From the IMG/VR virus record IMGVR_UViG_2609459832_000005: DNA of 41,648 nucleotides; one strand, given 5' to 3'. The stretch comes from a virus (Duplodnaviria > Heunggongvirae > Uroviricota > Caudoviricetes). Of this stretch, positions 6,715 through 38,833 are shown in pieces. Below the pieces are notes generated by a model. It was not told the origin of the DNA and made no database searches. It worked only from the letters and a program-made list of their open reading frames with translations. Position 1 is the stretch's first letter; each line of letters begins with the position of its first letter. The position numbers were made by a program, and so were the translations under genes.

Positions 6715-9700
6715 TACCGATATGCTCCACTTAACCGACCACCATCACGGGCCTGCTGTTGCATAAAGTCCGCTGCCGCTTTTTTCCCGAGGTCATAAAC
6801 CACCTTCAGGGCAGCCGGACCTATCTGCCCGTTCGTGCCATCGTTATTGATCTCGATGTTGTACTGCGGGGCAAACATCGCCATACCTGAACCACCAATA
6901 TCCGCCACAACCCCCAGCTTACCGTCAGCACCACGACGCAGAGGCAGAATGGCTTCAGGCCCAGCTTCCCCCATCACACCTGCACCTTTTGCAAAAGCAA
7001 AAAACGTCGGACGGTTAACCACCGTGCCACTGTAGCGACTCAAATCAGCAGACTGATAAACACCACCATCAGCATTGGGCGTCACACTGGCAGTTGCTGC
7101 ACTCCCCCAGCCAAACGCCGAACCAATCCCCTTAACTGCCTGCATCATGGACATCTGAGCCATGATTTTTGCCAGATCAGAAAGGAGCGAGGCGGTAAAA
7201 GATTTGAAGTTCAGTTTTCCGGTGGTACAGAATGTTGCCAGTGCATTACCTGCACTATTAAATGCCGCTGTAAGCATCTGCTCCGCAGTGCCTGCCGCAT
7301 TATCCGCATCTGCCGTGAAATTCTGAAACGCCCGCATGGCACCGTTTTTCCAGTTACCCTGAGCAATTTCAAGCTGTTGCCAGTAACGGCGATTCTCATT
7401 CAGTTGCCTGTTCAGGCTCTCCGTCAGCGCCTGCTCGGCCTTTCTGTAGTCATCCGTGTTATATGTCCCTTTCTGCTCACTATCCCGCCTCAACTGCTCC
7501 AGCTGTTGCTGGTATTTCTGGCGAAGGCTCAGTTGTACCTGATATCGCTGCCGCTGCTGATCACCCATACCCACCGTGGCGATATCCAGGTCATGTTGCT
7601 GACGCTGAGCGCGCTCTTCTTCAGCCAGTTGACTGGTCAGCTGAATTGTTTTTTTCTTCAGATCGTTGAGTGCCGTCTGTTTCTGAAGCTCCTGCTGTTT
7701 TACATCCAGCAGCGTCAGTGCCTGAATCAGTTCATCTTTACGGGCCAGCACACTCTTTTCATCTGCCGTCAGCTTTTTCCCGTCCAGGTCGCTGATGCGC
7801 TGCTGCAGAGCCAGAAGCTGTTTATGCGCTTCTGTCATCCTGTCAGTGGCAATGCCTGCTGACTGTCTGGCAGCAGCAATCTGCCCTTCCACCTGTGCCT
7901 GTTGCTGGCTGTACTGCAGCAATAACCGGGTGGCCTCATCATTACGGGTTTCGCGTGTTTTTTTCTTACCGGATGCCAGGGCTTTCTCGTAACGTTCATT
8001 TTCACGTTGTATCGCCGCATCCCTGACAGCCTGATCGGCGTACTGCATGGCATTAATACGCGCAATTTCACGCTGATGTCGTGCTGCTTCCGTTTCATTC
8101 ATCCGGTTCAGTGCAGCATTTTCAGCATTACGGCGTTTCTGTTGCTCCTGATAATTCCGCTCTGCCTGCTCTTTTGCATCCTGCAAATCCTTCTGGCGTT
8201 TTTTCTCCTGAAGCTCGTTAAGACGCTGCTGATCGTATTCAACCTGAGAAGATGATGCCGTCCAGGGGAGTCTTTTCGCCCGCGATACTTTCTCCTGCAA
8301 AGTGGCAATCTGCGCATCCAGCGAATCTTCACGACCAATATTCATGGCCGCATCCCAGAACTGCTTCCACCAGTCAGACAAGGTTTGCAGCGTACTACCC
8401 AGCGCATTGAGGTTATTATCAATATCCGCAGTACGCCGACCGGTTTCCTCTGCCAGTGCAGACATGGCTATCCGTGCCGCATCACTGGAGCGCCCCTGCT
8501 CTCCAAGGACGCGTATCTGCTCAAGCTGAGTGGCAGTAAGAAAATGCAGCTCATTGTCCAGAGCCTTCGCGGCATTTACAGGATCATCCTTCAGCCGCTT
8601 AAACTGATTTATGGTATCGCTGACCGACTGGCCAACCGATCGCTCCATCTGTGCGGCAGCTCTCGCCACCATACCGATATCGTTTCCACGAAATGCACCA
8701 CTCCCCACCACCTGAGCCAGCGCACCGGCTGCAACATGTTGCGTGATACCATTCCCGGAAATAGCACGACTGAGCGTCCACAGCTGCCCGGCAGTGACTC
8801 CGGCATAATGCCCCGTCAGCGACAGCTGGCGGTTAAATTCTTCCCCCTCCTTCTGACCGTCATACCAGGCTTTACCCAGACCATAGACGGCCGCGGTAAT
8901 ACCGCCAATAACCCCGCCCAGCATCATGCCTTTCGGTGACATCAGTGTGTCTATCCATCCGGCACGGTTAGCCAGCGTTATCCCGGATCCCCTCAGCGCC
9001 CCTAAATTGCCGCGGGCCAGTTCACCTATCAGAACGCCTATCTCCTGGCGGGCCGCTGCACTTTTCAGACCCAGCGAATGCGTGGCTTTTCCTGCCCGCT
9101 CCATTTTGCGGATATACACTTCTGCAGCACTGCTTACCCCCAGCTGGGCAGCCCTGGCACGAAGCAACTCAGAAGAAGAAAGATTCTGGCGGGTTGCCTG
9201 CTCTTTAAGCTGACGGATAAACGCCACTTTCTGTCGGGTAGCCTCTGCCTCAGCCTGCGTAAGAACACGGGTTTTCGCCGTAACCTCAGAAATCAGCGCC
9301 AGATAATCCTGCTGACCAATCCCGCCACTGTTTCTGGCCTGTCGGATCTGCTGCTGAATACGCTGTAACTCCTGCAACCCCGCACTGGCCTGTTTCACAC
9401 TGTCAATCTGACGATAAAACGCGGCAGCCGCTTTATCCTGAGCCTCCGCCAGAGCCATGGCCTGTGCCTGTTCCTCGCGCATTTTCTGGCTCAGTGCCTC
9501 CATACGCTGGCGGGTTTGCTCCACCTCGCGGGCCATGCGTTCATGAGCCTGTGCGCTCTTCTCCACCGTCTGCGCATGGACGGATGCGGCTGTTGCAGCC
9601 GAAGAAGCCGCCTGCATTGTCTGCCGGGCGGCCTGAGTCTGACGCTCCATAAAACGCTGCATACGGGCAGAAGACCGTTCTGCATCGCTGGCTGCACCAT

Positions 9701-21330: not shown

Positions 21331-22383
21331 TTATTTCCCCACCAGCTCGTTTATCTCTTTCACTGTCTGGTTAAACCGCTCTGACTCAAGCTCAACACCT
21401 AAGGCCCGACGCCCCAGCGCCATTGCTGCTTTTATTGTGGAACCGGATCCCATAAAAAAATCAGCAACCAGATCACCAGGTCGACTACTGGCATTGATTA
21501 TTTGCCGGAGCATATCCGCAGGTTTCTCACACGGATGTTTACCCGGGTAGAACTGAACGGGTTTATGCATCCAGACATCGGTATAAGGCACGGAGACTGA
21601 TACGGAGAAATAGCGCCGGAGAGATTTAAACTCATCCAGCAATTCAGAATATTTGCGATTCAGTGAATCATAAGATGCCACCAGCTGGTGGTGTGGTTGT
21701 TCCAGTTGTTGTTCCTGAAACTTCTCTGCCGCTATACGGGAAAACAGTGCCTGTAACTTCCGATAGTCAGCCTCATTCGGCAACTGCCACTGACTGGCAC
21801 CAAACCAGTGGGAAACCATATTTTTCTTACCTGTGGCTTCGGCAATTTGTTTTGCCGTTATACCCAGTTCGGCACGAGCATCCCTGAAATACGATATCAG
21901 CGGTGCCATTATGTGCTGTTTGAGTTCCCTTTCTTTTGCCGCATAGCCGTCACTTTTGCCGCGATATGGCCCCTGGTAATGTTCAGCAAACAGAACGCGC
22001 TCTGTGGCAGGAAAATATGCGCGCAGACTTTCTTTATTACACCCATTCCAACGTCCGGACGGCTTCGCCCAGATGATATGGTTAAGCACGTTGAAACGTT
22101 CACGCATCATGATCTCAATATCAGATGCCAGGCGATGTCCACAGAACAGGTAAAGGCTTCCGGCTGGTTTCAGTACCCGCCAGAACTGGGCCAGACAGTA
22201 GTCCAGCCACTTCAGGTAATCTTCGTCCCCTTTCCACTGATTGTCCCAGCCGTTGGGCTTCACTTTGAAGTACGGCGGATCGGTAACAATCAGATCAATG
22301 GAATCATCAGGCAAGGACTGAATAAAATGCAGGCAATCAGCGTTGATTAAATCAACACTGTTTATTTTTACAGTATTTTTCAT
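21331..22383 (-). CDS. DNA amino-methyltransferase (beta-class N6A/N4C MTase), orphan
   Basis: 350 aa; motif IV TDPPY near the N-terminus and motif I FFMGSGST near the C-terminus (permuted beta-class order); no adjacent restriction endonuclease candidate. Confidence 0.8.
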   Translation of the reverse strand: MKNTVKINSVDLINADCLHFIQSLPDDSIDLIVTDPPYFKVKPNGWDNQWKGDEDYLKWLDYCLAQFWRVLKPAGSLYLFCGHRLASDIEIMMRERFNVLNHIIWAKPSGRWNGCNKESLRAYFPATERVLFAEHYQGPYRGKSDGYAAKERELKQHIMAPLISYFRDARAELGITAKQIAEATGKKNMVSHWFGASQWQLPNEADYRKLQALFSRIAAEKFQEQQLEQPHHQLVASYDSLNRKYSELLDEFKSLRRYFSVSVSVPYTDVWMHKPVQFYPGKHPCEKPADMLRQIINASSRPGDLVADFFMGSGSTIKAAMALGRRALGVELESERFNQTVKEINELVGK

Positions 22384-23037: not shown

Positions 23038-23970
23038 ATGACTACGACAGCCACTTCCGCGCCACTAACTAAACAAAAAAAAATGCGTATCGGTTTCTTC
23101 CAAAGCTCCTCAGGAACGAAGTCAACTACATCAAATGCACAACTTGCATTTGACAACATGTATACAACCATTGTTACACCTTCGCAAAATTCTTATACCG
23201 CTGAGTTTGATAAGAAAAAATTAAAGATTGTATTCTTAGAAAAAGACGCACAGGCGGAGTTCTATTTTGGTTATCTATCATGCTCTCGTGATGGTTTCCA
23301 CTTACCTTATATTGGTGATGAAAATTGGGATGAGCACAATATTCCGTTAGATGATAAAAAATATATAGTCGAACGCACTTATTTTATTTACTACTATAAG
23401 AAAGACATTCTTGTTTTATCTCAAAATCATTTAGGACCTAAAGTTTCCGATTTAGCATTTCTTTTATTCAATTTTTCTGAAGAAAACAAACCTGTAGCGT
23501 TTGAGGCAATTTGGAAAAAAGAAAGTGTAAAAGAACTACTTGAAACAGGAAGCACTTTACGTAGCTGTGAAATTACACTCGCCGCTCCACGTAATTTTAG
23601 CGCAACGGATTATGACCTTTCGAATTCATTTTCCAAAAGTATGATTGAAATGATGGCTGGGATGGGCGGTTCGCATTTAAAACTATCACTTAGAGGTAGA
23701 GCATCGCAACGTAAATTAATCCGTGGTTATCTCAGTGATGAAGTAAAAAGTGGAATAAAGGAATTAATAGAAAAAGTTCCTCACTTATTACGTAAAGCTA
23801 ATGTCACTGAACCTAAAAATACTCATTCAAGGAGTCTTCTCAATCAAGTTCTGATCAGTGAAAAAAACATTAACACAAAAGATGGCTACGCAAAAGAAAC
23901 AGATGTGCGTACTGCCTTGATCAGTGCTAAAATTGAACATGGTCAGTATTTAAAGCAATATGAAATCTGA
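23038..23970 (+). CDS. AT-rich cargo protein A, 310 aa, soluble; candidate sensor component of a two-gene exclusion/defence cassette
   Basis: Long ORF on the strand opposite to all surrounding phage genes; markedly lower GC than flanks; no NTPase or nuclease motif recognised; weak local resemblance (LGPKVSDLAFLLF) to a lambda RexA segment as I recall it. Confidence 0.6.
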   Translation: MTTTATSAPLTKQKKMRIGFFQSSSGTKSTTSNAQLAFDNMYTTIVTPSQNSYTAEFDKKKLKIVFLEKDAQAEFYFGYLSCSRDGFHLPYIGDENWDEHNIPLDDKKYIVERTYFIYYYKKDILVLSQNHLGPKVSDLAFLLFNFSEENKPVAFEAIWKKESVKELLETGSTLRSCEITLAAPRNFSATDYDLSNSFSKSMIEMMAGMGGSHLKLSLRGRASQRKLIRGYLSDEVKSGIKELIEKVPHLLRKANVTEPKNTHSRSLLNQVLISEKNINTKDGYAKETDVRTALISAKIEHGQYLKQYEI

Positions 23971-23984
23971 TCTTATTTTTAAGG

Positions 23985-24437
23985 ATGATGATTATGCTTA
24001 TTAAAGTTTTAATTAACATAGTTATCAGTGGGCTGTTAGCTTGGGTGCTTGGGAAATACCTAGCGCCTATGGCTCACTCTGATATCTTAAGTACAGCCGG
24101 AGTGTTATCTACGGTGGCAGGCATTTTGTTTGGTTTTGTATTGGCCGCTATTTCCATCTTCAGTTCTGCAAGTTCAAGTACTGATGGAATTATTTTTGCT
24201 TTAAAACAAAACAAGATTTTACCTAAAATTATTCATAACCTGTTATCTACGGGAGTTACCTTAATATTAGCATGTATTTTCCCGCTGATAGCAATGTTTA
24301 TAAATGAAAAAATCACCATTACCTCTGTAAGACTTGATTTCGCCCTAACCTTATATGGTTTCTCGACCCTGATCGTATCAATAGTTTCATTTGCAAGTAC
24401 CTGGAGGAAAATAAACTGGATATTACCCCACATATAA
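23985..24437 (+). CDS. AT-rich cargo protein B, 150-aa integral membrane protein (about 4 TM helices); candidate membrane effector
   Basis: Four hydrophobic stretches (VLINIVISGLLAWVLG; VLSTVAGILFGFVLAAISIF; LLSTGVTLILACIFPLIAMF; LTLYGFSTLIVSIVSFAS); 14 bp downstream of protein A, co-oriented; size and topology like lambda RexB. Confidence 0.65.
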   Translation: MMIMLIKVLINIVISGLLAWVLGKYLAPMAHSDILSTAGVLSTVAGILFGFVLAAISIFSSASSSTDGIIFALKQNKILPKIIHNLLSTGVTLILACIFPLIAMFINEKITITSVRLDFALTLYGFSTLIVSIVSFASTWRKINWILPHI

Positions 24438-26674: not shown

Positions 26675-27064
26675 TCAGGCGGCTGCACCCGCCGGTTTCT
26701 CATACTTACTGATAGTGATCTCGACCTTCCCTTTCGGGATAACCGGTCCCCACTCCACCAGCATTCTTTTCACCTGTCTGTCGTCTTCCCACACACCCGC
26801 ATGGGTCAGGGCGTCAAACAGCGCCTTGTTATAGTTGTCCAGATCGCGGATCCGGTTATCCGGAGGAAACAACACGATCTCCACTGAAGCAGGTGCCGAC
26901 GTTGGTTTCGGCAGACGACGTAACTGCTCAACTATTGCTGCGCACGCCGCGCTCTGAAATTTTCGCCCCGCCTCGCTTATCAGGCTCTTACCTGCAAACG
27001 CCCCTTTGTTGGGGTGTCGCCAGTACGTATTCACGCTGGGCGGGAAAGGCAGGATCAGTTTCAT
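26675..27064 (-). CDS. rusA: Holliday-junction resolvase RusA
   Basis: 129 aa; N-terminal LPFPPSVNTYWRH and acidic catalytic residues (..DLDNY..ALFDAL) typical of RusA. Confidence 0.85.
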   Translation of the reverse strand: MKLILPFPPSVNTYWRHPNKGAFAGKSLISEAGRKFQSAACAAIVEQLRRLPKPTSAPASVEIVLFPPDNRIRDLDNYNKALFDALTHAGVWEDDRQVKRMLVEWGPVIPKGKVEITISKYEKPAGAAA

Positions 27065-27387
27065 ACTTTCAGGCCTCTCTCATGTAGCCAGTGGGTTGCA
27101 CGCAGCCTTGCGTTTTCCTCATCGGCAAGCAGTGCGCGGATAATCCCGACAGCCTCGCTGTCGTCGTCCTTCACCGCGGTATGAAGCGTTATCCCCCGGG
27201 CCACGCCACGCTTTATCGTGATGACGCCTTTTTTCTCCAGTGCGCGAAGATGCTCCACCGCTGCATTCACCGAACGGTATCCCAGCATGGTTGCCACCTC
27301 CTGATTGGTTGGCGGGAAGCCACGTTCTTTCTGGTAAGAAATCAGCATATCCAGCACCTGCTGCTGGCATTGAGTTAACGTCGTCAT
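27061..27387 (-). CDS. LexA N-terminal DNA-binding-domain protein lacking the S24 peptidase domain
   Basis: Likely start MTTLTQCQQQVLDMLISYQKERGFPPTNQEVATMLGYRSVNAAVEHLRALEKKGVITI.. parallels the LexA N-terminus as I recall it ([58 protein letters not shown]); no Ser/Lys peptidase region follows. Confidence 0.65.
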   Translation of the reverse strand: MTTLTQCQQQVLDMLISYQKERGFPPTNQEVATMLGYRSVNAAVEHLRALEKKGVITIKRGVARGITLHTAVKDDDSEAVGIIRALLADEENARLRATHWLHERGLKV

Positions 27388-27881
27388 TAAGCCCCCACGT
27401 AATTCCCTGACAGATACCACTCTTCACCTGATGCAGCCCGCTTACTGCTTTTCCGTAAACACCGTTCACGACGCGCCAGAAAATTGTTTCGTTCTGGCTG
27501 GGAGTGGCTTTCACGGAATGCCGCCATCCACACCGTTGCAGCACGACGGTATAAGCCCCTGGACTCCAGTTCTTCCGCCTGGCGGGTCAGGCACAAAATC
27601 ACCCGCGGGTCGTTAGTGCCGACATAGAAATTGCGCACAGGTCTGGTTTCACGAACTGGTTGTGGTTCCGGCCCCTGCGCTCTCTCAGTCAGGCGCGGGA
27701 AATGTCTGCGTGTATCTCCTTCACAACGGTGAGCCACACGCCCACTCTGACGTAACTTGCTTGCTGACTGCAGAACGCGCTGTCGTGAGTAACCAGCAAA
27801 AGCATCCGCAATGTCTCCGGAAGTGCACCCCGGATGGGCATCAATGAATTTCTGAACGTCATTTAACAGACTCATGATCAC
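27387..27881 (-). CDS. PerC-like transcriptional regulator homologue
   Basis: 164 aa; segment LESRGLYRRAATVWMAAF resembles the PerC-family core motif; assignment from memory. Confidence 0.45.
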   Translation of the reverse strand: MIMSLLNDVQKFIDAHPGCTSGDIADAFAGYSRQRVLQSASKLRQSGRVAHRCEGDTRRHFPRLTERAQGPEPQPVRETRPVRNFYVGTNDPRVILCLTRQAEELESRGLYRRAATVWMAAFRESHSQPERNNFLARRERCLRKSSKRAASGEEWYLSGNYVGA

Positions 27882-28696
27882 CCCCTAAATCCTGCCGGGA
27901 TCTGGCTGTAGTCCACGTTGTCGTAACTGGCTTTGAAGTACGGGTCCTCGCGTCTGGCTGCAGATACCGCAGGAACTTCCCAGGATTCTTCGAAATGACG
28001 ATCCGGACCAAAGAACGTGACAGCCTGTTTCACAAATTGTGTGCCGCTGTTACCCATCGCAGATACCCAGCCCGCGTAGCGTTTCACACCTTCCAGCATG
28101 GTTTCGGGTTTTACCCCCTCATTCAAACGAGCTTTCCAGGCTTTGAAGGCTGCAGATTTTGAATTGCCACCAGCACGTTTGGGGTATGCCAGCCATGCCT
28201 GCTCAAACTCCGGAGAGTATTCCGGTCGGTTTGAACGAACTCGCACGGACTCATCAGCAGATGCACCAACAGCTATTGGTTCATTGACTGGTTCTTTGAC
28301 TGGTTCAAAAGAGTGACTGGTTCTGGGTGAATCTCCTGCACCACCCCCTGGTGCAACTCCTGCACTACCTGGTGAATTTGCTGCACCAGATAGTGAATTA
28401 TTTGCACTACCCCCTAGTGAATCTCCTGCACCATCAAGATGAAGGAGATAGATATTACTTGAGTTACCTTTTTCACCTTTCCGGGTGACTTTTTTTACCA
28501 GCCCGGAATCACAAAGGGCCGCAATATGATTCATCACAGAACGTTTGCTAATCTCGCACTGGTCAGCAATATGCTGGTAGCTGGGCCAGCACTCGCCCTG
28601 ATCGCTGGCATTATCAGCCAGCTTGATCAGAACCAGTTTTCGCAATGGATTACCCACTCGAATTTTCATCGCTTTAACCATCAGCTCCATACTCAT
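27878..28696 (-). CDS. Replication initiator (lambda O-like; N-terminal winged-helix, low-complexity linker)
   Basis: 272 aa; N-terminal HTH (WPSYQHIADQCEISKRSVMNHIAALCDSGLV); Gly/Ser/Ala/Pro-rich linker encoded by tandem DNA repeats (candidate ori iterons inside the gene, as in lambda O). Confidence 0.55.
   Translation of the reverse strand: MSMELMVKAMKIRVGNPLRKLVLIKLADNASDQGECWPSYQHIADQCEISKRSVMNHIAALCDSGLVKKVTRKGEKGNSSNIYLLHLDGAGDSLGGSANNSLSGAANSPGSAGVAPGGGAGDSPRTSHSFEPVKEPVNEPIAVGASADESVRVRSNRPEYSPEFEQAWLAYPKRAGGNSKSAAFKAWKARLNEGVKPETMLEGVKRYAGWVSAMGNSGTQFVKQAVTFFGPDRHFEESWEVPAVSAARREDPYFKASYDNVDYSQIPAGFRG
28327..28433. repeat. Five tandem ~17-bp repeats (period 21-24 bp), candidate origin iterons
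   Basis: GTGAATCTCCTGCACCA (28327), GTGCAACTCCTGCACTA (28351), GTGAATTTGCTGCACCA (28372), GTGAATTATTTGCACTA (28393), GTGAATCTCCTGCACCA (28417); adjacent triplet of TGACTGGTTC at ~28283-28321. Confidence 0.5.
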
Positions 28697-28929
28697 GCTG
28701 CACCTCCGAGATGCTTCATGTTTTTTCCGGAGCGAAAGGCTATAAGCGGCATACTGACGCGGTAATTACGGCCCAGCGGTTCACAAATCACCTTCTGACA
28801 TTCACGGTCAACCAGGCTGACACGTAGAACATGCCCTGCTGGCGTGGTGTACCACTGCCCAACTGTGGGTGTTGATATTTTTTTACGCTGAAATAAACGG
28901 TAAATGTTGAGGAGCAACGGATTAAGCAT
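28693..28929 (-). CDS. Hypothetical protein
   Basis: 78-aa ORF, translationally overlapping neighbours in the early-right operon; no motif recognised. Confidence 0.35.
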   Translation of the reverse strand: MLNPLLLNIYRLFQRKKISTPTVGQWYTTPAGHVLRVSLVDRECQKVICEPLGRNYRVSMPLIAFRSGKNMKHLGGAA

Positions 28930-29758
28930 GACGATGCCCTCCGCTGATATTCAGGAGACGGTGAATATGAAAATTAGCCTTATCCGCCAGACGAATACGT
29001 TCAGCTTGCAAGTTAAGAAGGGTTTCTACCAGAACCTGATGTGCCTGCGGATCCGAAAGAGTTACCTTGCGCAGAGCACGTAGTGCAGTTGTTACATAAC
29101 TGAGTTTATGTAAGTCTTCATCATTCAGACGAGTGAGGGCTGGGACAGTAGCCATGATGGCAGCCTCCTTGATCGGTGAAATACTTCCACCACCGGAAAC
29201 GCCAATTTCGCTGGTGGTGAACTGAACGGGGTTGGCGTAACCGGTGATCAAGGAAACCGGCGCATCTTTCGATGCCCCCGCCCAGCCCACCATAACTTTG
29301 ATGTGAGCAAATGCGGACGATAAAAAAGACGCTGGCGCGTCATATATCGCCTTGATCAATTCCAGGACGCCAATCCCGGCACCCGCTTTATAAGGTGCCT
29401 GAACAGTGTAACGTCCCGGAATGGCAGAATCAATGTGCTGGTGGTCCTTCACACTCAACAAAATCACGCCTGAATTTCCACAAAGGACTAAAGCACTCAT
29501 GCGGGTAGTCTTTGCGAAGATAGATAACGCGCTGTGTTTCTGGCTCCCAACGAATAACATGAACATAAAGTCCTCTTCCGTCACGAAACCAGCGGTTAAG
29601 TTCCTGCACAACTCGCCCCCCACAGTCAGGTAAAGTTCTCTGTGGTTACTTACAGCCAGGTGATTTGGTAATCTGCATTCATGCCGTAACAACAGGTGTT
29701 CAGCGACGCTGACCACCAGCTGTTGCGACAAACGGTTATTTGCCGTTAAACTGTTCAT
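28922..29758 (-). CDS. Hypothetical protein (replication-region gene of unknown function)
   Basis: 278-aa ORF between the CII-like gene and the O-like gene; no Walker motif; function not recognisable. Confidence 0.45.
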   Translation of the reverse strand: MNSLTANNRLSQQLVVSVAEHLLLRHECRLPNHLAVSNHRELYLTVGGELCRNLTAGFVTEEDFMFMLFVGSQKHSALSIFAKTTRMSALVLCGNSGVILLSVKDHQHIDSAIPGRYTVQAPYKAGAGIGVLELIKAIYDAPASFLSSAFAHIKVMVGWAGASKDAPVSLITGYANPVQFTTSEIGVSGGGSISPIKEAAIMATVPALTRLNDEDLHKLSYVTTALRALRKVTLSDPQAHQVLVETLLNLQAERIRLADKANFHIHRLLNISGGHRHA

Positions 29759-34530: not shown

Positions 34531-34749
34531 GTGGAGAAACATATGCTGAACCTCGATTGTGTTCCTATCTCAACTTATTGCAAAGAAACTGGCGAAACTC
34601 CTGAAGCAATAAACAAACGTGTACAGCGCGGTGTTTGGCGTGAAGGTGTTCAGGTTTTAAAGGTTGAAGGCGTTAAGGAGAGGTGGATTGATCTTAGTGA
34701 GGTTGCAAAATGGGCCAGACAAAACTGCTCAAACTACCGCGCGGCGTAA
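34531..34749 (+). CDS. Excisionase-like small DNA-binding protein
   Basis: 72-aa ORF immediately upstream of and overlapping the integrase gene; probable winged-helix region (INKRVQRGVWREGVQVLKVEG). Confidence 0.5.
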   Translation: MEKHMLNLDCVPISTYCKETGETPEAINKRVQRGVWREGVQVLKVEGVKERWIDLSEVAKWARQNCSNYRAA

Positions 34750-35879
34750 CAATCAGAAAACACCGTCAGGGAGAAACGATCAATATAACTTTCACCTACA
34801 AAGGAGTTAAATGTCGTGAGCCACTTTCCAATCTGGAAGTAACACCAAAGAACATTAAATACGCCGAGCGTACACTCGGCGAAATTCATAATAAGATCGA
34901 AAGGGGAACATTCATTTATGCGGAATATTTTCCCCGTTCTGCTCGTTTGAAAATTTTTGGTAATGCTGCTGCAGGCAAAACGGTAAAAATGTACCTGGAC
35001 GAATACCTTGAAATCTGCGAAACGAGAAAACTTTCACCATCTACGATTGGTGGTTATAAAAAATGCCGTAGTGCGTTAGCCTCACTCCACATTTGCCCTG
35101 CAAGTGAATTAACACCAGCAATCCTGAAAGCGTGGATTCAAAGCCAGAAAACGACCTTAAAAACAATTCGCAACCAGTTATCTTTCCTGCGGTCAGCACT
35201 TGATGAAGCCGTAACCGATGGGGTACTTCAAATTAACCCCGTATCGTTGGTAACTGCTTCGCGCTACCAAAGTGATAAGTCAGAAGCAGAAAGCAGCTAC
35301 ATGGTTGATCCGCTATCACCAGCAGAAGTTGATGCATTACTAGCAGCAGCCGGAAACAAACAATGGGAGAATCTGTTCCGGTTCGCTATACATACAGGCC
35401 TGCGTAGTTCTGAATTATGTGCCCTTCGATGGCGTGATATCGACTTTGTTGGAAAAACTGCCCATGTCCAGAGCGCAAGTGTTGTCGGTGTTATCAAAGG
35501 AACAAAGACAAAAGCCGGTACTCGTAAAGTCGAACTGACAGAAGATGCAATGTTGGCGCTGATAAATCAGAAGCCATTTACATTCATGAAGGATGCTACA
35601 GTCTTTGAAGATCCAAAGACCAATAAGCCTTGGGCAAGTGCTGATGCAATTAGAAAAAAAGCATGGGTGCCAACATTGCGGAAAGCAGGTATTCGTTACA
35701 GAAACCCATATCAAACCAGACATACATTCGCCACCAGCCATATCAGCCGGGGAGCAAACCTGTTTTGGCTTGCGGTTCAAATGGGTCATAAAGGACCAGA
35801 GATGTTATTTAGACATTATGGCTCATACCTCAAAGAATATGATGGAAATACATCTTTAAATAGAAAAAATAGATATTAG
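34710..35879 (+). CDS. Lambda-type tyrosine integrase
   Basis: 389 aa; N-terminal arm-binding-type region (LPRGVTIRKHRQGETINITFTYKGVKCRE), C-terminal catalytic region with R..H..R..Y pattern (RHTFATSHI.. LFRHYGSYL); oriented toward the attachment-site copy at 37357. Confidence 0.85.
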   Translation: MGQTKLLKLPRGVTIRKHRQGETINITFTYKGVKCREPLSNLEVTPKNIKYAERTLGEIHNKIERGTFIYAEYFPRSARLKIFGNAAAGKTVKMYLDEYLEICETRKLSPSTIGGYKKCRSALASLHICPASELTPAILKAWIQSQKTTLKTIRNQLSFLRSALDEAVTDGVLQINPVSLVTASRYQSDKSEAESSYMVDPLSPAEVDALLAAAGNKQWENLFRFAIHTGLRSSELCALRWRDIDFVGKTAHVQSASVVGVIKGTKTKAGTRKVELTEDAMLALINQKPFTFMKDATVFEDPKTNKPWASADAIRKKAWVPTLRKAGIRYRNPYQTRHTFATSHISRGANLFWLAVQMGHKGPEMLFRHYGSYLKEYDGNTSLNRKNRY

Positions 35880-35911: not shown

Positions 35912-36601
35912 TCATATCAATGTATGTTGAATAGAATAATTTTCAACACCATAATGAGATGCTAATTTTGATAAAAAACCATCCTTTGAAGATAAAACAT
36001 CATCTAACATATTTCGTCTTACTAAAGAGACAAAAAGTGCAGCTGCTCTGGCTTGGCAATTAATAGATTTCGCTGGATTAAATTCAATATCAGTAAACCC
36101 ATCAAAATTTAATAGATGGAGTGCTAGATTTTTGTTTTGATTGAGCGCACTCAAATATAACCAATCATAAAAAGCAGTCCTGGGGACAATGGGCCATATT
36201 GTATTATAAAATTTGAAGTTAACTAATCCCCCAGATTCCTTTAATCTCATATCTTTTTTTGCTTCTATCGAGCTTTTATCTAAGATATCGACATATGGTC
36301 CTCCCATTTCAAATACTTTACTTGCTTGAAATGCAGATTCAACTGTAAACTCTTTCCCAAGTCTTTTCGTCTTTATTCTTAGATTAAATGCACTAAGTGC
36401 TACCCCCAGCGCATCTTCGGATTTACTAGAAATTTCCAACAAAGAGTTCAATCCCTGCTCATTCGCTGCTGTATGTAACGCCCTGATCGATTTTTGCTTT
36501 TGCGTTTTAGACATACCAGGAGCCCAAGGAAAATCCACATCCTTCGTGATCGATAGTAAGTTCCCTGCGTTTGTAGGGACGAAAACAGGTCTAACAGCCA
36601 T
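35912..36601 (-). CDS. Uncharacterised 229-aa partner of the DarT-like gene (candidate antitoxin/immunity protein)
   Basis: Start codon 3 nt after the DarT-like stop with AGGA SD (translational coupling); AT-rich; no macrodomain or NADAR signature recognised. Confidence 0.6.
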   Translation of the reverse strand: MAVRPVFVPTNAGNLLSITKDVDFPWAPGMSKTQKQKSIRALHTAANEQGLNSLLEISSKSEDALGVALSAFNLRIKTKRLGKEFTVESAFQASKVFEMGGPYVDILDKSSIEAKKDMRLKESGGLVNFKFYNTIWPIVPRTAFYDWLYLSALNQNKNLALHLLNFDGFTDIEFNPAKSINCQARAAALFVSLVRRNMLDDVLSSKDGFLSKLASHYGVENYSIQHTLI

Positions 36602-36604
36602 AAC

Positions 36605-37228
36605 TTATCCTAAATAATAATGCCTCTGAGAATAAAGTGTTCTAGCATTAAGATTATCATAATATCTCTGTATTGTCTGTGGATATAATCTCTTGAAATG
36701 TTCAGCAGATTCTTTGTTAGGGTGAAAAGTGCTTATAATATATGAGGGAGGAATTTTTTCAAATACCAGTATTTCAGCTTGAACATCCGTCGTATACTCA
36801 CTTGGAAGGTTTACATCTCTCTGAATCCCAAAAACATTCTCTGAAAACAAAGCACTAAATGCCTCAGCTCCTTTCATCAAATCAAGATTTATAAAACGAA
36901 CGTTATTCGAAGCTGCGTTGGTAGGATAAAAAGCGCAATCCTTAGCCCAAAGAACAGATGGATTGATTTCTAATATAACCCAGTCCCCAGGCTTTAAACA
37001 TCTATATTTATAAAACATTTTTGCATTAGGGTAACTTACGGACAAACAAATCGCATCTGGATGACCATCAATCCTTTCTTCATCATTACAATTATATTCA
37101 TTATTTTCATTATCAAGTTCTGAACGAGACATAAGGCCATTATCTAAAATGGAAGTTAGATTATCGCTATGTGTAAAATGAAACAAGCTACGAATATTAC
37201 GTTGCTGAATTATTTCCTGTATTGTCAT
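36605..37228 (-). CDS. DarT-like ADP-ribosyltransferase (DUF4433 family) candidate toxin
   Basis: 207 aa; N-terminal signature FHFTHSDNLTSILDNGL (DarT hallmark [YF]H.TH.DNL..IL..G.L) and C-terminal QAEILVF resembling the catalytic-Glu motif (AEFLV) of DarT, both as I recall them. Confidence 0.6.
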   Translation of the reverse strand: MTIQEIIQQRNIRSLFHFTHSDNLTSILDNGLMSRSELDNENNEYNCNDEERIDGHPDAICLSVSYPNAKMFYKYRCLKPGDWVILEINPSVLWAKDCAFYPTNAASNNVRFINLDLMKGAEAFSALFSENVFGIQRDVNLPSEYTTDVQAEILVFEKIPPSYIISTFHPNKESAEHFKRLYPQTIQRYYDNLNARTLYSQRHYYLG

Positions 37229-37591: not shown

Positions 37592-38833
37592 ATGGCAAGA
37601 CAAACCAAACCTCTATCCGTTAAAGAAATAGAATCAGCCAAACCCAAGGAGGCGGACTACGTTCTCTATGATGGCGATGGCCTTGAGCTACTCATTAAAT
37701 CCAGCGGGAGTAAAATCTGGCAGTTTCGCTACATTCGCCCTGTCACCAAGAAACGAGCAAAGAAGAGCATAGGCTCCTACCCGTCAGTTACCCTTGCCGA
37801 TGCCAGAAACTACCGTGCAGAGTCCCGCTCACTACTGGCTAAACAGATCGATCCGCAGGAACATCAGCAAGAACAATTGCGCAGTTCGCTGGAAGCCAAA
37901 ACCAACACTTTCCAACTCGTAGCTGAACGTTGGTGGAATGTGAAGAAAGCCAGTGTGACAGAGGACTATGCGGAAGATATCTGGCGCTCTCTTGAAAGAG
38001 ACGTCTTTCCTGCGATTGGCGACGTTAGCGTTACAGATATTAAAGCTCATACACTGGTTCAGGCCGTACAACCGGTTCAGGCCAGAGGAGCACTGGAAAC
38101 TGTTCGTCGCCTGTGCCAACGTATTAATGAGGTCATGATCTATGCCCAGAACACAGGGCTGATTGATGCTGTTCCCAGCGTTAATATCGGTAAAGCCTTC
38201 GAGAAGCCTCAGAAAAAGAACATGCCCAGCATTCGACCGGATCAGCTACCTCAGTTAATGCAGACGATGCGAACAGCCAGCATTAGCCTTTCCACACGCT
38301 GCCTGTTCATGTGGCAACTTCTTACTATTACCCGCCCTGCCGAAGCGGCTGAAGCTCTCTGGGAAGAGGTAGACATAGAAGCGCGAGAGTGGAAGATTCC
38401 TGCAGCACGCATGAAAATGAACCGCGACCATACTGTTCCATTGTCAGATGAAGCAATTGCGATACTAGAGATGATGAAGCCGTTAAGTGGAAATCGAGAA
38501 TTTATCTTTCCCAGCCGCATCAAGCCAAACCAGCCGATGAACAGTCAGACCGTAAACGCATCGCTAAAACGCGCAGGTTTTGGTGGGGTGCTCGTTTCAC
38601 ACGGCCTGCGATCTATCGCCAGTACAGCCCTTAATGAGCAGGGATTTCCACCTGATGTTATTGAGGCTGCACTTGCTCATGTGGATAAGAATGAGGTTCG
38701 TCGTGCGTATAACCGTAGTGATTATCTTGAGCAGCGACGGCCTATGATGCAGTGGTGGGCTGATTTTGTGATGGCTGCAGATCACGGTAGTATGATTGAA
38801 GGAGGGATAAAGGCAATGCGGTTAGTTGGATGA
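37592..38833 (+). CDS. intA: P4-family tyrosine integrase (IntA-like, ssrA-associated)
   Basis: 413 aa; N-terminal KPLSVKEIESAKPKEADYVLYDGDGLELLIKSSGSKIWQFRY typical of P4-type integrases; C-terminal R..H..R..Y catalytic pattern; immediately downstream of the ssrA 3' end copy as in E. coli CP4-57. Confidence 0.9.
   Translation: MARQTKPLSVKEIESAKPKEADYVLYDGDGLELLIKSSGSKIWQFRYIRPVTKKRAKKSIGSYPSVTLADARNYRAESRSLLAKQIDPQEHQQEQLRSSLEAKTNTFQLVAERWWNVKKASVTEDYAEDIWRSLERDVFPAIGDVSVTDIKAHTLVQAVQPVQARGALETVRRLCQRINEVMIYAQNTGLIDAVPSVNIGKAFEKPQKKNMPSIRPDQLPQLMQTMRTASISLSTRCLFMWQLLTITRPAEAAEALWEEVDIEAREWKIPAARMKMNRDHTVPLSDEAIAILEMMKPLSGNREFIFPSRIKPNQPMNSQTVNASLKRAGFGGVLVSHGLRSIASTALNEQGFPPDVIEAALAHVDKNEVRRAYNRSDYLEQRRPMMQWWADFVMAADHGSMIEGGIKAMRLVG

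Follow-up and report, generated by a model that had tools for sequence, protein, structure and literature searches.

Where does a lambdoid prophage begin its replication when no helicase or helicase-loader gene is found beside its initiator gene? The question is raised by the IMG/VR virus record IMGVR_UViG_2609459832_000005, a stretch of 41,648 nucleotides (nt; 41.6 kb) that is referred to as a whole as the window. A gene on the minus strand of the window encodes a helix-turn-helix (HTH) protein of 272 amino acids (aa), and an array of five short repeats lies within that gene. A sequence-only reading had taken the repeats for origin iterons inside an initiator gene, as in phage lambda, and this proposal agrees with every test that was run at the level of sequence. 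The interval is likely to be the vegetative replication origin of the lambdoid prophage, embedded in the gene of its own initiator, and the repeats are very probably iterons, the binding sites of that origin. The features that carry this reading are the following.

27878..28696, minus strand: replication initiator gene (272 aa), holding the proposed origin; assigned from Pfam HTH_36, phrog_270 and relatives 98-99% identical
28430..28696, minus strand: N-terminal winged helix-turn-helix domain, aa 1-89, presumed to bind the iterons; assigned from the AlphaFold2 (AF2) model
28327..28431, no strand assigned: iteron array, five 15-bp dyad cores GTGMA-N5-TKCAC in plus-strand reading; assigned from repeat finders and a pattern count
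28327-28341, 28351-28365, 28372-28386, 28393-28407 and 28417-28431, plus strand: the five iteron cores
28285-28294, 28297-28306 and 28314-28323: three exact decamers, TGACTGGTTC on the plus strand and GAACCAGTCA in coding sense
28277..28326, no strand assigned: conserved junction CC-AGAACCAGTCAC-TCTTTT-GAACCAGTCAAA-GAACCAGTCAAT-GAACCA (coding sense), candidate unwinding or loading element

Repeat finders and a pattern search recovered all five repeats and all three decamers where the sequence-only reading had placed them. The consensus of the cores is GTG[A/C]A-N5-T[G/T]CAC on the plus strand, and their start-to-start spacing of 24/21/21/24 bp, which that reading had proposed to compare with helical periodicity, corresponds to roughly two helical turns. 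The pattern GTGMANNNNNTKCAC has six matches in the window against 0.23 expected, five of which make up the array, and none of 100 shuffled sequences reached six. The sixth match, GTGCATTACCTGCAC, is isolated at 7241-7255 (plus strand) within a 1034-aa minus-strand open reading frame (ORF) of the tail region, and it is most likely due to chance, since 0.23 matches are expected per window. The repeat finders detected no second array of comparable size in the window. The repeats had been described as five direct repeats of about 17 bp; the number was right, and the units are better described as imperfect palindromes with 15-bp cores than as simple direct repeats. In coding sense the unit reads [A/G]GTGCA-N5-T[T/G]CAC, and copy 2 is a perfect 5-bp dyad (GTGCA-ACTCC-TGCAC on the plus strand, GTGCA-GGAGT-TGCAC in coding sense). 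The decamers had been said to precede the repeats, which holds for the order on the plus strand and not for transcription; the gene is on the minus strand, so the TGACTGGTTC copies come after the iterons. A partial fourth copy, TGGTTC, is present at 28277-28282. The decamer GAACCAGTCA alone shows no window-wide enrichment at one mismatch, and its significance derives from comparative data rather than from counts in the window. Iterons and decamers all lie inside the minus-strand ORF 27878-28696, in the segment for aa 89-140, with the five cores at aa 89-124. All five copies share one reading frame, and the decamers are translated as R-T-S-H and then as E-P-V-K/E-P-V-N, the same ten nucleotides being used in two frames of one gene. 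DnaA boxes were not found near the initiator gene, and the window holds three against 4.1 expected.

The protein itself has the profile of an initiator. PHROG profiles file it under replication initiators, in agreement with the earlier call: phrog_270 ('replication initiation protein') matches aa 3-271 with E=1.5e-88 and phrog_8540 ('replication initiation O-like') matches aa 1-149 with E=2.8e-61, these names being annotation-level labels rather than tested functions. The PHROG matches of the N-terminal half belong to 'O-like' families, and those of the C-terminal half to 'DnaD-like helicase loader' and 'primosomal protein' families. Pfam HTH_36 (PF13730) matches aa 17-67 with 43.5 bits against a cut-off of 25 and is carried by all listed database homologues. 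Pfam DnaD_N (PF21984) remained below its cut-off (23.2 bits against 27), no Rep_3-type Pfam match was obtained for the protein, NCBIfam has no family for it, and a sequence search of solved structures gave only a spurious low-complexity match, to a keratinase. The term 'O-like' in the earlier reading is apt for the architecture and not for the family: Pfam Phage_rep_O (PF04492) does not match the protein at E<=0.01, and BLASTP against lambda O gave no significant similarity and no meaningful alignment.

In the AF2 model, the confidence score (pLDDT) is 79-91 over most of aa 1-70 and 66-75 over aa 71-90. Helices are predicted at aa 3-10, 16-28, 39-46 and 50-62 and strands at 66-72 and 78-84, with a beta-hairpin wing at 66-84. 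Disorder is predicted (pLDDT ~30) for aa 90-155, a segment coincident with the iterons and the decamer block, and the sequence-only reading had placed the repeats in a low-complexity linker. The C-terminal domain is small, with three helices at aa 161-213 and a pLDDT of 66-75. Foldseek of the model against the PDB gave only generic winged-helix matches, none at E<=0.001, among which DnaD-N (2v79) ranked 20th with E=0.03; the C-terminal domain was too small or of too low confidence for placement. The remaining parts of the protein are given below.

28511..28549, minus strand: predicted recognition helix, aa 50-62, KRSVMNHIAALCD; assigned from a helix in the AF2 model, variability and tracking of the iteron class
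27947..28234, minus strand: C-terminal domain (~aa 155-250), which presumably connects to the helicase machinery; assigned from AF2, PHROG and relatives
27881..27973, minus strand: C-terminal tail, aa 242-272 (..DYSQIPAGFRG); assigned from tblastn and nucleotide matches

A comparison of homologues bears on whether the DNA or the peptide is under selection. The samples comprised 15 phage homologues, 80 near-identical IMG/VR copies and 80 diverse genomic homologues, the last including Pseudomonas, Enterobacter, Aeromonas, Shewanella, Xenorhabdus, Marinomonas, Providencia and Avibacterium; Vibrio phages are also among the homologues. An array was called where the winged helix is followed by three or more copies of a 15-mer, with agreement at 11 or more of the 15 positions in each. 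Such arrays are present in 83 of 84 non-redundant homologues from Gammaproteobacteria. Over 68 loci nearly all spacings are 21-24 bp, with 21 bp found 87 times, 22 bp 44 times, 23 bp 47 times and 24 bp 72 times. The copies use two reading frames in 51 of the 83 loci, by way of a recurrent 23+22 spacing. In one homologue (L096) the identical GTGCAGGAGATTCAC is read as VQEIH in one copy and as SAGDSL in another, and in a second (L139) GTGACACAGAGTCAC is read as both VTQSH and GDTESP. In a set of 59 close alleles free of indels, the spacers have a nucleotide diversity of 0.026, the cores one of 0.0014-0.0034 (8-18 times less) and the junction one of 0.004, and segregating sites occur at 6 of 75 core positions vs 9 of 33 spacer positions (Fisher p=0.014). 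Close relatives have between 4 and 7 iterons and phage cdtI has 8, and the length of the protein shifts accordingly. Homologues that keep the peptide repeat and lose the DNA repeat had been named in advance as the refuting case; the reverse was found, the DNA being kept while the peptide, and even the frame, changes. These comparisons indicate that the repeat is selected as DNA, independently of reading frame, rather than as peptide, and that the Gly/Ser/Ala/Pro-rich 'linker' peptide may be regarded as largely a by-product of translating the origin.

An alternative-frame ORF of 44 aa (28273-28407, minus strand; ..VVQEIHPEPVTLLNQ..) was also observed in the window, and consists of iteron DNA in the frame that many homologues use for one copy. 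Two genomic homologues, L115 and L145, are truncated in exactly this frame and are either pseudogenes or N-domain-only variants.

The variation in the N-domain follows the type of iteron. The first 47 residues are near-invariant, and the variation is concentrated at aa 49-85, that is, in the modelled recognition helix and wing. The helix types and the repeats found with them are as follows.

Helix S[KR]RSVMNHI: iteron GTG[C/A]A...T[G/T]CAC
Helix ..MRHI: iteron GTGAC...GTCAC
Helix RTTAINHI: iteron GTGTA...TACAC
Helix SRSTVKSHI: iteron GGGCAG-GAG-CTGCCC (non-GTG, clear dyad)
Helix SKSAV..HI: iteron TGCCA-N5-TGGCA (non-GTG, clear dyad)
Helix DRSTVRKHI: another repeat type, non-GTG

Arg52 accompanies GTG..CAC arrays in 66 of 66 loci, and with Ser or Thr at position 52 the array is of another type in 16 of 18. 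Self-complementarity is 97-99% at the outer core positions 1-3 and 13-15. Of 34 unique consensus sequences, 33 have the same inner half-site class left and right, which none of 10,000 permutations reached. The symmetry of the half-sites and their covariation with the helix are as expected of a winged-helix protein that reads a palindrome as a dimer, in support of the origin reading rather than as proof of it.

The second conserved element is the junction, which follows the last iteron directly and can also be written in coding sense as CC-AGAACCAGTCAC-TCTTTT-GAACCAGTCAAW-GAACC. In the form CCAGAACCAGTCAC-TCTTTT-GAACCAGTCAAWGAACC, its nucleotide sequence is conserved between groups as distant as Pseudomonas and Vibrio. 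Of 92 homologues, 88 have a match with no more than two mismatches, and the gap between the last iteron and the junction is exactly 2 nt in 64 of 68 loci. Third-codon positions in the junction are 97% conserved (1.85 bits), whereas those of equally conserved N-domain codons in the same genes are 50-55% conserved (0.33-0.59 bits). An Arg codon of the junction is AGA, a codon that is rare in E. coli, and its third position is invariant across the 71 junctions analysed. In Shewanella-group loci the junction is translated in another frame, giving the peptide HPEPVTLEPVNE instead of PRTSHSFEPVNE, and a shorter T-rich spacer restores the frame; the whole junction is frame-shifted in L155, L158 and L159. 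The junction 12-mer unit, which contains GAACCAGTCA, varies from 2 to 5 copies among close relatives. Across 84 loci the junction is the most AT-rich segment of the gene, 10-14% above the gene mean. It is found together with the N-domain and iteron module; homologues with only the C-domain in common lack it and carry, at the same position of the domain boundary, different arrays of their own. Two such arrays are listed here.

L014 1451-1495: Stx1_14040, tandem 12-mers CAGAGAATAC, no GAACCAGTCA junction
L015 1761-1879: Vibrio phage 252E42.2, five copies of GGTGACAGAGAGTCAC, no GAACCAGTCA junction

Together these data indicate that the junction is under direct constraint at the nucleotide level and make it a candidate for a common origin core, where the DNA would open and the helicase would enter. 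A bolder and rather doubtful proposal is that the GAACCAGTCA 12-mer block might be a sequence-specific 'loading pad' common to thousands of Gammaproteobacteria prophages, read either by a conserved host protein or by the initiator through its first 47, near-invariant residues; such recognition would let the DNA melt and host DnaB load without a phage loader. If true, this would make the block a portable origin core that had gone unrecognised, and would explain the replication of 'O-only' lambdoid phages.

From the sequence we infer binding, dimer stoichiometry, the unwinding site, host helicase recruitment and origin activity, which can be combined into the following scheme. The N-terminal winged-helix domain of the initiator would bind as dimers to the five dyad iterons. 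With the iterons about two helical turns apart, the bound dimers would share one face of the DNA and form an O-some-like nucleoprotein complex. The DNA would most likely be opened, and the helicase loaded, at the GAACCAGTCA 12-mer block 2 nt past the last iteron. Recruitment of host DnaB-DnaC would be direct, through the C-terminal domain and tail of the initiator. This last step is proposed because no phage helicase or loader gene was found, and it is the most economical model by inference only.

The C-domain recurs in PhiR49_2, where two downstream genes are annotated as DnaC and DNA helicase, and in Stx1_14040, where the downstream genes are annotated as 'DNA helicase' and 'replication protein'. 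The C-terminal tail varies within the family in step with the partner gene downstream. The tblastn matches are confined to aa 242-272 in mEp460_4F5, 569R4 and SKA5; mEp460_4F5 and 569R4 have initiator-only modules with otherwise different initiators, followed by a yfdN-like gene. The last 76 nt of the gene match the yfdO/yfdN joint of CPS-53-type prophages, and phage cdtI lacks yfdN. The common tail is either a mosaic joint with the yfdN-side module or a peptide that recruits the host helicase; the latter has been kept as a lead only, as the shared 76-99 nt may be such a joint. In L098 and L102, which have similar tails, the N-terminus of the next gene product may resemble E. coli DnaC. Enterobacter homologues that end in ..IPAGFRG and ..VPPGFRG are followed by a putatively DnaC-like gene.

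Several points weigh against the origin reading. The junction is only 60% AT in the window, where the gene mean is 50% and the corresponding lambda block has 70-85%, and an equally AT-rich patch lies on the opposite side of the iterons.

28437..28496, no strand assigned: second, weaker AT-rich patch on the other iteron flank, coding for the wing; assigned from AT content

This patch is 60-70% AT in the window gene and 7-9% above the gene mean across the 84 loci, and with the moderate AT content of the junction it makes the placement of the unwinding site uncertain. The junctions were picked by fuzzy matching, which biases their conservation somewhat upward. The covariation of helix with iteron and of the two half-sites rests on few independent events, about three classes within GTG..CAC and about four outside, and the permutation counts overstate significance because the loci are related; for these two reasons the covariation is taken as support and not as proof. 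Literature searches found no published binding or origin-activity experiment for any member of the family.

In the first of the rival explanations, the units are real initiator sites that serve mainly in autoregulation, copy control or as a transcriptional roadblock, with initiation elsewhere in the prophage or dependent on recombination. Plasmid iterons are known to double as control sites (PMC4980987), and recombination promoted by host RecBCD was found to improve the growth of a lambdoid phage that has an O-only module (PMC12315714); the modest local AT-richness and the lack of a helicase or loader gene among the scanned ORFs point in the same direction. However, the fixed 2-nt phasing to a nucleotide-conserved, AT-richer block in 64 of 68 loci fits an origin core and not an operator, the location of the array between N- and C-domains mirrors that in lambda, P22 and L (PMC8022706), and the window has no comparable other repeat array. 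This explanation is considered unlikely.

Much the same low probability is given to a second explanation that concerns the junction only, namely that the block is a recombination joint for swapping N-domain and iteron modules with different C-terminal or helicase modules. It would account for the switch of C-terminal domains and tails right after the junction, in keeping with the downstream partner gene, and for the joint occurrence of the junction and the N-domain module, the junction being missing where only the C-domain is shared; mosaic joints are also seen elsewhere in the gene. However, the junction is near-identical between Pseudomonas, Shewanella, Vibrio and E. coli elements in which synonymous N-domain sites are saturated, and such near-perfect conservation across genera needs direct purifying selection. 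In addition, no other part of the gene is as rich in AT, and the junction keeps a rigid spacing from the last iteron. The roles as recombination joint and as unwinding or loading element are not mutually exclusive.

It is very improbable that the repeats are a slippage-expanded, low-complexity Gly/Ser/Ala/Pro linker whose DNA repetition is a functionless by-product. The predicted disorder of the segment, the variable number of units between alleles and the common frame of the five copies in the window would agree with it. It is contradicted by the 15-mers that are kept in a second frame, with unrelated peptides, in 51 of 83 homologues, and by nucleotides that are kept where amino acids differ, as in GGT/AGT, TCA/GCA and CTA/CCA among the copies of the window itself; the dyads, the helix covariation and the low diversity of the cores have no rationale at the protein level. 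Least credible of all is an action of the dyads in the mRNA, as hairpins for translation or stability or as a frameshift signal giving an N-domain-only protein: each core could form a short hairpin, and the frame of ORF 28273-28407, in which L115 and L145 are truncated, has no stop within the array and ends just past the junction, but the stems would be of 3 bp because pairing of the inner positions is possible in only 44% of copies for 4/12 and 24% for 6/10, a fold as good as that of the array was obtained with 33 of 200 shuffles, and no canonical slippery heptamer was seen by eye. An RNA structure or known RNA family on the array was rejected on a fold z of -0.92 and on Rfam matches that were sub-threshold noise only.

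The gene is part of a lambdoid early-right operon with, in order of transcription, cI, cro, a CII-like gene, an Ash-like gene, a 78-aa ORF, the initiator gene, a PerC(YfdN)-like gene, a LexA DNA-binding-domain (DBD) gene, RusA, KilA-N, DUF968 and Q. Pfam scans, which covered the ORFs from cI to Q and the majority of larger ORFs in the rest of the window, revealed no helicase, loader or primase gene; the module is an initiator-only ('O-only') lambdoid replication module. The PerC/YfdN-like gene (27387-27881, minus strand) has a start that overlaps the stop codon of the initiator gene, with 27878-27881 shared, and is followed by a gene for a protein consisting of the LexA DBD only (27061-27420, minus strand). 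The pair of YfdN-like and LexA-DBD genes also follows the initiator-only modules of SfV, mEp460_4F5 and 569R4.

The initiator gene is widely distributed. It is 98-99% identical to SfV orf39 and to genes of mEp460, 2H10 and many Stx2c and Stx2a phages (Stx, Shiga toxin), 98.3% identical to the gene of the Eru6 reference phage Stx2a_WGPS2, and 88% identical to ST64B sb42. At least a fragment of the gene is present in ~2,700 of 5,426 complete E. coli genomes, and most of it in ~900. The family has 5,587 database proteins.

Other observations were made in the neighbourhood and elsewhere in the window. Matches to C4 antisense RNA (Rfam, 82 bits, E=1e-15; 29210-29297, minus strand) and isrK (Rfam, 64 bits; 29322-29398, minus strand) lie in the 278-aa 'Ash-like' ORF 28922-29758, just upstream of the initiator gene. 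This region looks like an antisense-RNA immunity unit of the P1 immI type, and the N-terminal half of the Ash-like ORF and part of its Pfam Ash match may be RNA-coding rather than protein-coding. At the end of the prophage, genes for a DarT single-stranded DNA ADP-ribosyltransferase and a NADAR antitoxin (a DarTG pair; 35912-37228, minus strand) are located between tyrosine integrase genes at 34710-35879 and 37592-38833 (both plus strand), which suggests a small defence island or a second integrated element beside the attachment site of the prophage. Plus-strand ORFs at 23038-24437 (DUF6731, 310 aa; an unknown protein, 150 aa) oppose the surrounding late and Q-region genes and adjoin an N6/N4 DNA methylase gene (21331-22383); the pair may be moron or defence cargo.

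With the proposed assignment, a very common replication module of prophages acquires both an origin and an initiator. The Shiga-toxin phage literature calls this module 'non-lambdoid' and regards it as having unknown replication proteins. In Eru5 and Eru6 phages, origin and initiator would be concrete experimental targets because the replication of Stx phages drives toxin production. The family-wide data also provide a natural specificity table of recognition helix against iteron type. The by-product of most interest is that the GAACCAGTCA block beside the iterons is conserved across genera and independently of frame, which makes helicase recruitment in initiator-only phages directly testable. 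Annotators should be cautious, as the 'low-complexity linker' of these proteins would be translated origin DNA.

Origins within initiator genes have been described in several phages. In lambda (NC_001416), four 18-bp dyad iterons with a spacing of 20/24/23 are read in frames 0, 2, 2 and 1 from O residue 117; they come just after the N-domain of O and are followed by a block of 70-85% AT. It is accepted that the iterons inside genes O of lambda, 18 of P22 and 18 of L are origins (PMC8022706). Dimers are the binding form of lambda-type O proteins, O contacts single-stranded DNA in the AT-rich region, and extra iterons lengthen the O protein in lambda-type Stx phages (PMC7466680). The window resembles lambda in the order and orientation of N-domain, iterons and a relatively AT-rich block, and in having at least four dyad repeats of ~15-20 bp between the N-domain (aa 1-89) and the C-domain (aa 160 onward) of the initiator. 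As in lambda and the lambda-type Stx phages 933W and P27, the origin would lie in the initiator gene where a flexible-linker peptide is encoded, with 4-6 imperfect palindromes at 20-24 bp; the number of iterons alters the length of the protein, and no DnaA box is involved (PMC7466680; PMC8022706). In contrast, the window protein belongs to HTH_36 and lambda O to Phage_rep_O (123 bits), and the two are not detectably related. The core in the window is 15 bp (GTG-N9-CAC) instead of 18 bp, the downstream block is ~60% AT and conserved in sequence across many genera as GAACCAGTCA 12-mers, and the module has no P-type loader gene among the scanned ORFs.

Gene 18 of P22 and gene 18 of phage L likewise have lineage-specific repeats inside a distantly related or unrelated initiator gene, and their origins were assigned by sequence and module-swap genetics (PMC8022706). 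They differ from the window in encoding a DnaB-type helicase (gene 12) beside the initiator, and in the sequence and length of the repeat, e.g., 11 bp (TGTCCAACGGA) in L. Iteron plasmids (RepA, RepE, TrfA, pi) have arrays of initiator sites at ~22 bp beside an unwinding element of short repeated 12-13-mers (PMC4980987), which are similar in site spacing and in the adjoining block of short repeats. In these plasmids, however, the iterons are outside the rep gene, Rep binds as a monomer with two winged-helix domains and DnaA boxes are usual, none of which applies to the window.

An O-only module has been reported in 34 of 314 enterobacterial lambdoid phages, including LLS, as one that has 'not been studied experimentally' and whose replication is 'not yet understood' (PMC12315714). 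Like the window, the LLS-type module has a single initiator gene without helicase or loader, followed by nin-region-type genes, and the O-only modules of mEp460_4F5 and 569R4 have the C-terminal tail of the window protein and a downstream yfdN-like gene. The N- and C-domains of the LLS-type initiator differ from those of the window, and only the last ~30 aa match. In Eru phages the gene product has been described only as an HTH (PF13730) protein (PMC8951638); the Eru5 and Eru6 papers treat these phages as lacking O and P and report no origin, and the word 'iteron' is absent from PMC8044961. The array was found undescribed in the Eru papers, in the paper on the lambda-type Stx origin and in general literature searches, a scope that left out the SfV and ST64B genome papers (orf39, sb42). 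The present comparison indicates that the HTH protein of Eru5 and Eru6 phages is an analogue of O that carries the origin. Overall, the lambda solution of placing the origin in the initiator gene has probably been realised in a different, widespread and experimentally unstudied family of initiators that has no adjacent loader gene.

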